Source of the DNA: Escherichia phage vB_EcoM_WFbE185
Direction: 5' to 3' (one strand)
DNA length: 64,000 nucleotides
Sequence record: MK373778.1
A model generated the notes under the pieces. That model was not told the DNA's origin and made no database searches. It saw only the letters and a list, made by a program, of their open reading frames with translations. Position numbers and translations under genes: made by a program. How positions within the stretch are numbered: position 1 is the first letter of the stretch; each line of letters begins with the position of its first letter. Positions 12,833 to 32,214 of the stretch are shown piece by piece.

Positions 12833-13303
12833 TTAATCATGTTTCCACACCCCATCGGTATTTGACCAAAGTCGCTGATTATCTGATCCTCGCCACAGCT
12901 TTTTAGTCGGAAGATTTTTCTCATACTTCCCATCAATAATAACATCAACATATTTAAGCATTTCTAGTTGTTTAATATCTTCAAACTTATATCCTGTCCA
13001 CAACCAAATGCTTTTATTGGGATAAAGATTTTTTACTGTTTGAGCAATGCAATGAATAACATCTCGGTTATCAGGATAGAGAGGGTCACCTCCGGTTATA
13101 GTTAATCCTTCTATATAATCATTATTCAAACATTCAATTAATTGTTCTAGTGTTTCACCAGTGAATGGAACACCATTTCTAGCATTCCATGTTGATTTAT
13201 TATAACACCCTTCGCATTTATGCAAACAACCCGTAACGAAAAGAACGACCCTGCATCCGGGGCCATTCACAAAATCGCAAGGATAAAATCTATCATAATT
13301 CAT
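12833..13303 (-). CDS. nrdG: Anaerobic ribonucleotide reductase activating protein NrdG (radical SAM)
   Basis: 156 aa; CLHKCEGC (CxxxCxxC) cluster motif; directly downstream of nrdD. Confidence 0.9.
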   Translation of the reverse strand: MNYDRFYPCDFVNGPGCRVVLFVTGCLHKCEGCYNKSTWNARNGVPFTGETLEQLIECLNNDYIEGLTITGGDPLYPDNRDVIHCIAQTVKNLYPNKSIWLWTGYKFEDIKQLEMLKYVDVIIDGKYEKNLPTKKLWRGSDNQRLWSNTDGVWKHD

Positions 13304-15117
13304 TGGTGTTTAACCCTATGCATGATTTCTTTATTTTTACCGAGATTAAATCCGCGTTCGTTCGGATTTCCCAAATAACCGCATGTTCTTCTTATGGTGT
13401 TCATCTTTTTAGGATCAGTTTCTCCACAAATAGAACAAACAAATCCGTTTTCAGTAGGAGTCATTTCATGGGTACTTCCACATGTAAAACATTTATCCAC
13501 TGGCATATTAACACCAAAATAATCTAAATGTTGTGCAGCATAATCCCAGACGGCCTCAAGCCCCTTTAAATTGTTTTTCATATCTGGAAGTTCAACATAA
13601 GAAATGTGACCGCCGGTCGCTATGAAATGATAAGGAGCTTCACGAGAAATTTTTTCAAACGGAGTAATATTTTCTTCTACTGAAACATGGAAACTGTTAG
13701 TGTACCAGCCTTTATCTGTAACATCCTTTACACTTCCATATTTTTCTGTATCAAGTTTACAGAAGCGATAACAAAGGTTTTCAGCAGGAGTAGAATATAA
13801 ACTAAAAGCAAATCCAGTTCTTTCAGACCACTGTTTAAGATGAGCATTCATTTTAGTTAAAATTTCTTGCCCAATATCACGACCAACAAGAATATTCAAT
13901 TCGTGAATACCAATGTATCCTAAAGACACTGAACTTCTACCGTTTTTAAATAACTCAATTATGTCGTCATCAGGTTTAAGACGAACCCCGAATGCACCTT
14001 CTTGGTAAAGAATAGGAGCAACAGTCGCTTTAACTCCTTTTAAGGAACTAATTCTACACATCAAAGCTTCAAAACACAGGTCCATTCGTTCGTTAAATAG
14101 CTCAACAAATTTCTGTTCATTGAACTGTGTTCCAATATAAGAATCTAACGCAATACGAGGAAGATTCAGTGTTACAACACCAAGATTATTACGTCCATCA
14201 AGAATTTCATTGCCAGTCGAATCTTTCCATACACTCAAGAAACTACGGCAGCCCATTGGAGAAACAGGAACTGAAGAACCGGTAATAGCTTTATTATTCT
14301 TAACCGAAATAATGTCAGGATACATTCTTTTGCTTGCACATTCTAACGCAAGTTGTTTAATATCATAGTTCGGATCATCTTTATAAAGATTAACACCTTC
14401 TTCAACAAACATAACAAGTTTAGGAAAAATAGGAGTTATTCCATCACGACCAAGACCTTTAATGCGGTTTTTAAGAATTGCCTTCTGAATCATTCGTTCA
14501 GTCCAGTCAGTTCCCGTACCAAATGTAATTGTTACAAAAGGCGTTTGTCCGTTTGAACTAAAGAGAGTATTTACTTCATATTCATAAGCTTGGAACGCGT
14601 CATAGACATCTTTTTCTGTTTTGGATTGAGCATAATTCAACGCATCAGCAATTTGCCATTTTTCTGCATCTTCAACATGTTTAGCGTATGTGCGTTTAAC
14701 ATAAGGAGAAAGAACTTTATCGACATTCGCAAATGTAGTTCCGCCATACTGGTGTGAAGCAACTTGTGCGGTAATTTGTGCCATAATTGCAGTAGCAACG
14801 CCAATAGATTTAGGCGTTTCAATTTGAGCATTGCCTAATTTAAATCCATTCTCAAGCATCCCCTTTAAATCGACTAAACAGCAATTGGTAAACGGAAGAG
14901 CAGGAGAATAATCAATATCATGCATGTGAATGATTCCGCTTTCATGCGCATTCATAATAAAAGACGGGACCATATTTTTGGCAATGTGCTTAGACACAAT
15001 ACCAGCCATAAGGTCCCGTTGAGTTGGAAAAACACGAGAATCTTTATTAGCATTCTCGTTCAAAAGATCTTTATTAGTTTTATAAATTAATCCTTCAATT
15101 TCTTTTTCAATTTTCAT
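13300..15117 (-). CDS. nrdD: Anaerobic ribonucleoside-triphosphate reductase NrdD
   Basis: 605 aa continuous ORF; C-terminal glycyl-radical motif RRTCGYLG and Zn-ribbon CFTCG...CSICG. Confidence 0.95.
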   Translation of the reverse strand: MKIEKEIEGLIYKTNKDLLNENANKDSRVFPTQRDLMAGIVSKHIAKNMVPSFIMNAHESGIIHMHDIDYSPALPFTNCCLVDLKGMLENGFKLGNAQIETPKSIGVATAIMAQITAQVASHQYGGTTFANVDKVLSPYVKRTYAKHVEDAEKWQIADALNYAQSKTEKDVYDAFQAYEYEVNTLFSSNGQTPFVTITFGTGTDWTERMIQKAILKNRIKGLGRDGITPIFPKLVMFVEEGVNLYKDDPNYDIKQLALECASKRMYPDIISVKNNKAITGSSVPVSPMGCRSFLSVWKDSTGNEILDGRNNLGVVTLNLPRIALDSYIGTQFNEQKFVELFNERMDLCFEALMCRISSLKGVKATVAPILYQEGAFGVRLKPDDDIIELFKNGRSSVSLGYIGIHELNILVGRDIGQEILTKMNAHLKQWSERTGFAFSLYSTPAENLCYRFCKLDTEKYGSVKDVTDKGWYTNSFHVSVEENITPFEKISREAPYHFIATGGHISYVELPDMKNNLKGLEAVWDYAAQHLDYFGVNMPVDKCFTCGSTHEMTPTENGFVCSICGETDPKKMNTIRRTCGYLGNPNERGFNLGKNKEIMHRVKHQ

Positions 15118-29889: not shown

Positions 29890-30105
29890 TTATTGATAAA
29901 ATGGAGTTAAAGCCCAAGATTCTTTAGATACCATATTGGCGAAATGCCTCATCTCTTCGATTTGGCGACGACGCTGGTCAGCATAGTCTTCTTCGCCTTC
30001 TTCCTTACAATCTTCAAGGTCTTCTTCAAGATACTTTAAGTATTCACTACAAATTTTGTTGACCTTTTCTTGAAAGTCCAATAACCCAGTAATAGTAGAA
30101 GCCAT
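29890..30105 (-). CDS. Hypothetical acidic protein, 71 aa
   Basis: ORF track. Confidence 0.45.
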   Translation of the reverse strand: MASTITGLLDFQEKVNKICSEYLKYLEEDLEDCKEEGEEDYADQRRRQIEEMRHFANMVSKESWALTPFYQ

Positions 30106-30371
30106 TAGTATTTTTCCTCAGGACGAAATACTGCACGACACGCCCACATGCTGGCTTCTTTTAGATGTTGCTTAGCATACTTAAGAGCCTGCACTGCATC
30201 CATATCTTCTTTGGTTTGTTCCTCTGTTTCATTTTCTTTCAAGATATATGCTTCTTCAATCAGAGCATCAAACAACAATCCAAGACGGACTTCGGCATCT
30301 TTAATAGCGTTCACTTTACTGATTTTATCATCGGTATGCGGCTTGTAGCCTTTGATGTCTTCAATCGACAT
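30105..30371 (-). CDS. Hypothetical protein, about 88 aa
   Basis: ORF track 30105..30539 trimmed to internal Met. Confidence 0.4.
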   Translation of the reverse strand: MSIEDIKGYKPHTDDKISKVNAIKDAEVRLGLLFDALIEEAYILKENETEEQTKEDMDAVQALKYAKQHLKEASMWACRAVFRPEEKY

Positions 30372-30585
30372 AAGGAATTTCCTCATCGGTGGCAAGGTCG
30401 TATTCGACCAATTGGATAGGCTCATTAATACCATATCCACGTACAGTGATATCAGTTGCCGGATAGTTTCCAGTAATATCACCCATTCTAAATGATTCAA
30501 TGAATGATTGCTCGCCTGAGCAACTAAACCAGGCGGCAAAACATTTTAAAACATCTTCGGACCCTTCTATAATCAATTTAGCCAT
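30361..30585 (-). CDS. Hypothetical acidic protein, 74 aa
   Basis: ORF track. Confidence 0.45.
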   Translation of the reverse strand: MAKLIIEGSEDVLKCFAAWFSCSGEQSFIESFRMGDITGNYPATDITVRGYGINEPIQLVEYDLATDEEIPYVD

Positions 30586-30947
30586 TATAGACTCTCAGTA
30601 AAGGTACGAGCAATAACGTCACGCTGCTGTTCCGGAGTCAGAGAGTTAAAGCGAACTGCATAACCGGATACACGGATGGTCAACTGCGGATATTTTTCTG
30701 GATGCTTAACTGCATCTTCCAGAGTTTCACGACGCAGAACGTTAACGTTCAGGTGTTGACCACCTTCAATTTTAACTTTAGGTTGATGTTCAATTTCAAT
30801 TTCACGGGCATTCAAACCGTAGAAAATTTCCGGGTCTACAATAGCGTCTTCTTTAAAAGTCTTAGAGACAATAATCCGGGCCTGAGTACCGTCTTCAAAA
30901 TAAATAGTGCCTTTGTGTGCACCTTCAAGAATTTGATATGCTTTCAT
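30585..30947 (-). CDS. grcA: Autonomous glycyl-radical cofactor (GrcA/YfiD-like)
   Basis: 120 aa; C-terminal [60 protein letters not shown] with RVSGYAV glycyl-radical motif. Confidence 0.85.
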
Positions 30948-30953
30948 ATAACC

Positions 30954-31262
30954 TCAATTAGAAAATAAATTTATCCAAGTTTTTTCTTTAATCAAAAATG
31001 GGTCGGAATTAAACGCCATTAAACTTTGAGTGATTAATCCCTTAAATGGCCCGTCAATAAATTCCATTTTGAAATGCGGAATACTAGTCATCAACCGTGC
31101 ATTAGGAGCAGTACAAAGAACCTGCTGCCCTGCAAACGGTCCTTTAGTTAAACGGTATCGTTTAGGTTTAAAATGGTAAATCTCGTAATTTTCTACAAGA
31201 GCCCTTTTATTGCATACTGGGCTGTTATAACAATACTCAAAAACTTCAATAGTTGTCATCAT
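30954..31262 (-). CDS. Hypothetical protein, 102 aa
   Basis: ORF track. Confidence 0.5.
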   Translation of the reverse strand: MMTTIEVFEYCYNSPVCNKRALVENYEIYHFKPKRYRLTKGPFAGQQVLCTAPNARLMTSIPHFKMEFIDGPFKGLITQSLMAFNSDPFLIKEKTWINLFSN

Positions 31263-31911: not shown

Positions 31912-32214
31912 TTATTTACCTTTAATTACTTTAGCTGCTTCGATAGCCGCTTGCTGAAGGTCATCCATAGACATACCGAATTTAGAAGCAAAGTTATCAA
32001 TTTTCTTTTCGACAGCATTCAAAGGCTTGGCCTGTTTACCTTCATTAGCGCCAGGAAGAGCGAGAATACGCTCTTTGTCAATATAAAGGCTTACAAGTTT
32101 CTTACGGTCTTTATCGGACAAATCATGAAATGAATGGGCTTTTTTATTTATAGCGGCTTCTAATTTACCTGCACTCACTCGCGCTTCAGTAATAAATTCT
32201 TGATATGTTTTCAT
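31912..32214 (-). CDS. Internal protein with capsid-targeting sequence
   Basis: N-terminus MKTYQEFITEA (CTS plus prohead-protease LxE site); 100 aa; basic. Confidence 0.6.
   Translation of the reverse strand: MKTYQEFITEARVSAGKLEAAINKKAHSFHDLSDKDRKKLVSLYIDKERILALPGANEGKQAKPLNAVEKKIDNFASKFGMSMDDLQQAAIEAAKVIKGK

Follow-up and report, generated by a model that had tools for sequence, protein, structure and literature searches.

Pyruvate formate-lyase (PFL) yields formate and acetyl-CoA, the latter a source of ATP through acetate kinase. Two small proteins, E. coli YfiD (GrcA) and Y06I, the product of the phage T4 gene vs.6, have been described as its 'spare parts' (Wagner et al. 2001, BBRC 285:456, as reported in PMC8683613 and PMC13450708). 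According to the account of that study in PMC8683613, the PFL activase (PFL-AE) installs a glycyl radical on both YfiD and Y06I, and the activated proteins form complexes with O2-cleaved PFL in which activity is restored. YfiD and Y06I are the only spare parts validated so far (PMC8683613). The N-terminus of GrcA is disordered, helps radical installation and is dispensable for catalysis (PMC13450708), and the radical is transferred from G102 of GrcA to C419 of PflB (PMC12338860). The gene vs.6 has also been listed among 11 T4 ORFs of unknown function that are conserved in five T4-like genomes (PMC1524935), and in the searchable literature we found no vs.6 mutant for which an in vivo phenotype is described.

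We analysed a window of 64,000 nucleotides from Escherichia phage vB_EcoM_WFbE185 (MK373778.1), a T4-like phage of the genus Mosigvirus whose best 6-kb matches were the Escherichia phages FL31, AV115 and AV118 (~97.8%). An open reading frame of 120 aa with an ATG start and a TAA stop was found on the minus strand at 30585..30947, where an earlier note on this DNA had placed it, and its translation matches the C-terminal 60 residues quoted there exactly. By both position and sequence it is orthologous to T4 vs.6 (NP_049730, NC_000866 63557-63919). In the synteny comparison, it shared with T4 the neighbours vs.5, vs.7, vs.8 and regB; regB is present in the window near vs.6, and vs.5 and vs.7 fall in PHROG families of unknown function. 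The copy in AV118, the closest phage, is annotated as 'autonomous glycyl radical cofactor', and the T4 ortholog is already named GrcA in RefSeq. The features used below are as follows.

12833..13303, minus strand: nrdG, radical-SAM activase of NrdD (Pfam Fer4_12, 4.3e-48, and Radical_SAM)
13300..15117, minus strand: nrdD, phage class III ribonucleotide reductase of the glycyl-radical, formate-dependent type (Pfam NRDD, 3.3e-171, and Gly_radical)
30585..30947, minus strand: vs.6 / grcA-like coding sequence, 120 aa (ORF list, Pfam, TIGR04365, PDB 6OWR, T4 synteny)
30595..30767, minus strand: host-derived tract, gene nt 181-353, encoding the glycyl-radical domain (codon display)
30663..30665, minus strand: codon of Gly95 in RVSGYAV, the glycine predicted to carry the radical (aligned with GrcA and PflB)
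30768..30947, minus strand: N-terminal half of phage type, codons 1-60, a diverged form of the GrcA N-terminus (BLASTP, codon alignment)
30952..30955, minus strand: Shine-Dalgarno GAGG, 4 nt upstream of the vs.6 ATG (read from the sequence)
30954..31262: vs.7 open reading frame, upstream of vs.6 (ORF list)

The Shine-Dalgarno sequence of vs.6 shares bases with the stop codon of vs.7, and the stop codon of vs.6 itself runs into the start of the next gene downstream (TAATG). Such tight gene packing is typical of T-even early regions. A promoter and terminator scan gave 11 promoters against 9.6 expected from shuffles, which is no excess, and nothing specific to vs.6. Open reading frames overlapping vs.6 on the plus strand, such as 30702-30968, lacked support and were dropped.

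The vs.6 product is a small standalone protein of ~14 kDa that consists of a short N-terminal region and a single glycyl-radical domain, without a catalytic barrel. The Pfam Gly_radical model covered residues 60-101 with 67.3 bits (cut-off 22.2), and the Pfam search found no further domain. Among NCBIfam models the best was the GrcA equivalog TIGR04365 (159.1 bits, E=5.8e-47, residues 18-120), whose curated cut-off of 170 bits was missed by 11 bits because the phage-type N-terminus has diverged. The best solved structure found by phmmer was E. coli GrcA (PDB 6OWR, E=2e-42, residues 21-120), followed by the PflB C-terminus (residues 57-120 against 696-759, E=3e-26); similarity to both proteins had been anticipated in the earlier note. 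All of the C-terminal 60 residues are identical to residues 68-127 of E. coli GrcA, so the GrcA/YfiD glycyl-radical domain named there is present, and the same domain is ~78% identical to the PflB C-terminus. The RVSGYAV motif is intact, with Gly95 aligning to G102 of GrcA and G734 of PflB. The N-terminal half had been called unrelated to GrcA, and this part of the earlier description has to be corrected, since it is a diverged GrcA N-terminus: the N-terminal 60 residues alone matched that of GrcA with 14/40 identities (35%, BLASTP E=3e-6), and the GrcA alignments of the whole protein begin at residue 18-21. TIGR04365 on the N-terminal half alone gave a weak hit (E=0.054).

Compared with E. 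coli GrcA, the window protein shares the standalone architecture of ~14 kDa, the C-terminal 60 residues, RVSGYAV and a homologous N-terminal region, but it is 7 aa shorter, only ~32% identical (19/60) over the N-terminal 60 residues, and encoded by a phage in an early-region operon instead of behind a host promoter. The C-terminal glycyl-radical domain of PflB (PDB 1H16) and TdcE, the part replaced by GrcA, aligns with residues 57-120, whereas the catalytic barrel and Cys418/Cys419 of PflB have no counterpart in the phage protein. T4 Y06I is closest: it also has 120 aa, is identical at 112/120 positions (93%) and lies in the same genomic neighbourhood. Seven of the eight substitutions between the two fall in the N-terminal half and the other is H73 in T4 against R73, the host residue, in the window. 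Y06I has been validated biochemically as a PFL spare part, according to PMC8683613. The rescue of O2-damaged PFL by a phage-borne radical domain, which the earlier note had put forward, has accordingly been demonstrated for the T4 ortholog, as that review reports.

We consider it very probable from these comparisons that this Mosigvirus gene is orthologous to T4 vs.6 (Y06I) and encodes an autonomous glycyl-radical cofactor of the GrcA/YfiD kind that rescues host PFL, with a 3' tract recently replaced by host DNA. Its identity and function are already known, the function having been published in 2001 and the gene being named by current annotation pipelines, and vs.6 is a textbook case of a lytic phage with a repair part for a host enzyme.

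The two halves of the gene differ sharply in their relation to the host. In a codon alignment with E. coli grcA, the last 60 codons of the window gene agreed at 60/60 amino acids and 173/180 nucleotides (96.1%), and those of T4 at 177/180 nucleotides. Over the first 60 codons the agreement was 19/60 amino acids and 50% of nucleotides for the window and 18/60 and 47.8% for T4, which thus has the same mosaic of a phage-type N-terminal and an E. coli-like C-terminal half. The codon-by-codon display places the 5' breakpoint sharply at codon 61 (GAA GGT GGT...), and the last three codons carry changes common to the phages; the host-like tract is therefore delimited to gene nt 181-353 (30595-30767). 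Within it, the window differs from E. coli by 4 synonymous changes and T4 by one nonsynonymous change (R73H), while two IMG/VR relatives, L095 with a Mosigvirus-type and L097 with a Tequatrovirus-type N-terminal half, show 0/173 differences. E. coli and Escherichia sp. MOD1 differ from each other at gene nt 204 and 282. The tract DNA matches grcA (96%) and not tdcE (75%). Sliding identity between the window and T4 forms a 97% island exactly over the tract on a background of 70-80%.

Synonymous divergence was estimated as NG86 dS over the last 60 codons (nt 181-360). The values against E. coli were 0.046 for T4, 0.17 for the window, 0.36 for Citrobacter amalonaticus, 0.72 for Klebsiella and 1.0 for Salmonella, so that the phage tract (0.05-0.17) is closer to E. 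coli grcA than E. coli is to Citrobacter. We then compared the tract with 80 host grcA genes from species-representative genomes, a panel in which Klebsiella pneumoniae is not included. The best host was Escherichia with 52-57/60 third positions, the next best reached 41-46, and the median was ~35. Between E. coli and C. amalonaticus, Salmonella, Klebsiella and Enterobacter, dS was 0.36-1.02 in the tract and 0.57-1.0 in the N-terminal half. GC content is 0.47 in the tract, 0.36 in the phage-typical N-terminal half and 0.374 in the whole window. Given the best match to Escherichia, an E. coli tract that diverges like its own N-terminal half, and the GC of the tract, the direction of transfer was therefore from host to phage. 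The comparison indicates that the 3' half of vs.6 was recently overwritten by Escherichia grcA DNA when phage vs.6 and host grcA underwent homologous recombination. We found no description of this mosaic in the searchable literature, outside which lie Wagner et al. (2001) and the T4 genome review; the tract with its sharp boundaries is, together with the contrast to phage RB16 described below, a modest and possibly unreported evolutionary footnote that leaves the functional picture unchanged. The tract is a clean instance from nature of a virulent phage that degrades host DNA recombining homologously with the host chromosome, and could serve to mark the frequency of phage-host exchange.

More distant phages separate the contribution of selection from that of recent DNA transfer. 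The homologs of RB16 and other Pseudotevenvirus members, Slopekvirus and T5-like phages have the same architecture with a phage-type 'MKAYQ' N-terminus, and their radical domains are identical or nearly so to that of the host at the protein level. Unlike the window gene, they have no recent host-DNA tract, because synonymous sites have reached saturation in comparison with all host grcA genes sampled (~30-37/60 third positions, dS ~1.4-2.5). The clearest case is RB16 Vs.6 (L107, 1501-1863; also L105 and L106), which is identical to E. coli GrcA at 60/60 amino acids but agrees at only 149/180 nucleotides (dS ~2), a striking example of an exact match to the host protein that selection alone has maintained. 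Copies from Slopekvirus, Karamvirus, Pseudotevenvirus and T5-like phages are likewise saturated. The nucleotide identity in T4 and Mosigvirus is therefore not due to a general constraint on synonymous sites. Selection on vs.6 was measured as dN=0 in the C-terminal half and dN/dS ~0.1 in the N-terminal half (window against T4). As read from these alignments, very strong purifying selection preserves the protein-level identity to the host, which is to be expected of a part that must fit host PflB and PflA.

Between Mosigvirus-type and Tequatrovirus-type genes, 18-22/180 nt differ in the N-terminal half (dS 0.47-0.58) and 1-9/180 in the C-terminal half (dS 0.02-0.18), which places C-half dS 3-20 times below N-half dS. 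Between L095 and L097 there are 19 differences in the N-terminal half and 1 in the C-terminal half (Fisher p=2.5e-5). Judging from this disparity, the tract was introduced or homogenised in the T4 and Mosigvirus lineages after the two genera had diverged, possibly by independent conversions from Escherichia grcA or by one conversion followed by phage-phage recombination. The pattern fits at least two post-divergence conversion events, because C-half dS is 3-20 times lower and both L095 and L097 show no difference from E. coli in the tract. The stronger proposal is that, in T4- and RB69-type coliphages, recurrent host-to-phage gene conversion keeps the radical-domain half of vs.6 in nucleotide lockstep with Escherichia grcA, and here we judge the case to be evenly balanced. 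Under this proposal, the ~173-nt homology block would allow the host allele of the moment to be copied again and again by the highly active T-even recombination machinery, giving concerted evolution with the host gene, and with each conversion the phage cofactor would be matched anew to PflB and PflA of the infected host. The T-even recombination system recombines efficiently with short homologous DNA, and repeated conversion is mechanistically plausible once a homology block exists.

The main competing account, which we regard as unlikely but worth serious attention, is that the nucleotide identity goes back to a single old capture, before Tequatrovirus and Mosigvirus split from their common ancestor, combined with an unusual synonymous constraint, rather than recent or repeated conversion. 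It would explain why all T4- and Mosigvirus-type copies share the 5' breakpoint and the changes in the last three codons. Common breakpoints are expected anyway, however, because recombination resolves only inside the homologous block. A single old capture also has to accommodate the excess of N-half over C-half differences between the genera (18-22 against 1-9 of 180, and 19 against 1 for L095 and L097), and the same 60 codons have been free to saturate synonymously in RB16, Slopekvirus and Karamvirus.

When each phage lineage was compared with the DNA of its own host, strong host-like synonymous identity was found only in Tequatrovirus and Mosigvirus. Klebsiella phage pKp20 (L004, Jiaodavirus, 301-663) carries the Klebsiella/Salmonella-type residues LLDAVEH and not LEDAVKH. 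Its synonymous identity to Klebsiella-like hosts was mildly raised: 43/60 third positions matched, where the median was 34, and dS was 0.49 to the nearest host in the panel, which was sampled without K. pneumoniae. This may reflect an earlier conversion in which another host was the donor.

As to what the conserved domain does, we propose that the host activase PflA (PFL-AE) would place a radical on Gly95 of RVSGYAV in the vs.6 product, and that the activated 14-kDa protein would then dock on host PFL whose C-terminal radical domain has been cleaved by O2. The docked protein would pass the radical to Cys419 and so restore the conversion of pyruvate into acetyl-CoA plus formate. The 60 residues would be kept host-identical because the domain must fit both host PflB and host PflA. 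For the phage, the presumed benefit is that PFL would be kept running in micro-oxic conditions, supplying fermentative ATP and acetyl-CoA, and that its formate could feed the phage's own class III reductase NrdD as reductant. Characterised class III ribonucleotide reductases use formate as reductant, and T4 NrdD has been proposed to contain a formate site (PMC4493059). Both nrdD and nrdG are present in the window on the same strand as vs.6 and 15.5 kb off, in line with the ~15 kb given in the earlier note. The two phage families with GrcA homologs, T4-like and T5-like, also both carry NrdD; IrisVonRoten, for example, has both genes. In Aeromonas phage phiAS5 (L013), the GrcA homolog at 301-678 begins within the end of nrdG, with nrdC and nrdH following, and thus lies within an anaerobic/redox nucleotide-reduction cluster. 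From the co-occurrence and this one adjacency, we propose a possible supply line from PFL through formate to NrdD, which is a concrete, testable hypothesis for why phages carry GrcA homologs.

Two other functions were weighed against rescue of PFL. The protein might be an anti-host decoy that soaks up PflA or occupies PflB, redirecting or shutting down fermentation. Many small early phage proteins are host-takeover factors, and the phage-specific N-terminus is unlike that of the host protein, in which this region influences radical installation by PFL-AE (PMC13450708). We nevertheless find a decoy very improbable: the T4 ortholog restored PFL activity in vitro, as reported in PMC8683613, and the whole radical domain, including Gly95 and its flanks, is exact despite saturated dS in RB16, which argues for a working cofactor and not a mere binder. 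Slighter still is the chance that the vs.6 product serves NrdD of the phage, and not host PFL, as a spare radical domain. The genome does encode NrdD and NrdG, the phiAS5 homolog adjoins nrdG, a role in nucleotide metabolism was speculated on in a 2006 comparative paper (PMC1524935), and spare parts for other glycyl-radical enzymes are still considered possible in reviews (PMC13450708, PMC8683613). BLASTP of the vs.6 product against the NrdD of the window, however, gave E=10 and thus no detectable similarity, while the domain is fully identical to that of GrcA and close to the PflB C-terminus, and Y06I works with PFL and PFL-AE according to PMC8683613. Rescue of host PFL is thus the reading we retain.

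Homologs of vs.6/GrcA were detected by tblastn in 1588 of 50,697 phage records (~3%). The carriers are T4-like Straboviridae of Escherichia, Klebsiella, Enterobacter, Citrobacter, Aeromonas and Vibrio, and T5-like Demerecviridae. At least 80% of the vs.6 gene is covered in 774 records, and the mosaic is common to hundreds of independently sequenced phage genomes. Throughout Tevenvirinae the phage-type N-terminal half is conserved, and in T5-like phages it can still be recognised as 'MKAYQ...'; the full-length phage gene therefore long predates the host tract. That the host-like 3' half was captured passively and recently from the host, or arose as an artefact of assembly, and has no selected function, as its near-identity to E. 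coli DNA and host-like GC might suggest, can practically be dismissed, given the recurrence of the mosaic in these independent genomes, an intact in-frame tract with dN=0, and a full-length gene across Straboviridae and T5-like phages that is older than the tract. Two validated spare parts, YfiD and Y06I, thus stand against homologs in ~3% of phage genomes, from two unrelated families that carry NrdD.

The T5-like phages VEc33 (L010) and SB13 (L011; both at 301-669) start with 'MKAYQ' like the T4-like phages and unlike bacterial GrcA, which starts with 'MITGIQ'. This suggests a phage-specific GrcA lineage that has been exchanged between unrelated phage families. Some retrieved loci were set aside. 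A 19-kb IMG/VR contig (L122, 1402-1797) had been a candidate for a phage copy tracking Yersinia, but it encodes a bacterial-type GrcA, MITGIQITKASNE..., closest to Yersinia, and is probably host sequence or a prophage flank and not a phage gene. The loci L163-L172 are PflB C-termini rather than GrcA. On the bacterial side, a contig labelled as the Gram-positive Vagococcus sp. WN89Y (L043) carries an enterobacterial-type grcA with 91% amino acid identity to E. coli, and the assembly is probably mislabelled or contaminated. Another grcA was found on a 275-kb replicon of Klebsiella sp. WOUb02, 'plasmid unnamed4' (L034).

Two further genes around vs.6 were recorded. Two genes downstream lies a vs.4 homolog, at 30105-30371 on the minus strand according to the AV118 annotation and at 30105..30539 in the ORF list, which begins it from an upstream TTG. 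Its product matches the Pfam model Acb2_Tad1_hairpin (2e-17), the fold of anti-CBASS and anti-Thoeris cyclic-nucleotide sponges. On the other side, a 100-aa open reading frame at 31912-32214 on the minus strand is 92.8% identical in DNA to T4 ipII (internal protein II). The ipII homolog directly follows vs.8 here and stands ahead of denV, whereas the order in T4 is vs.8-denV-ipII.
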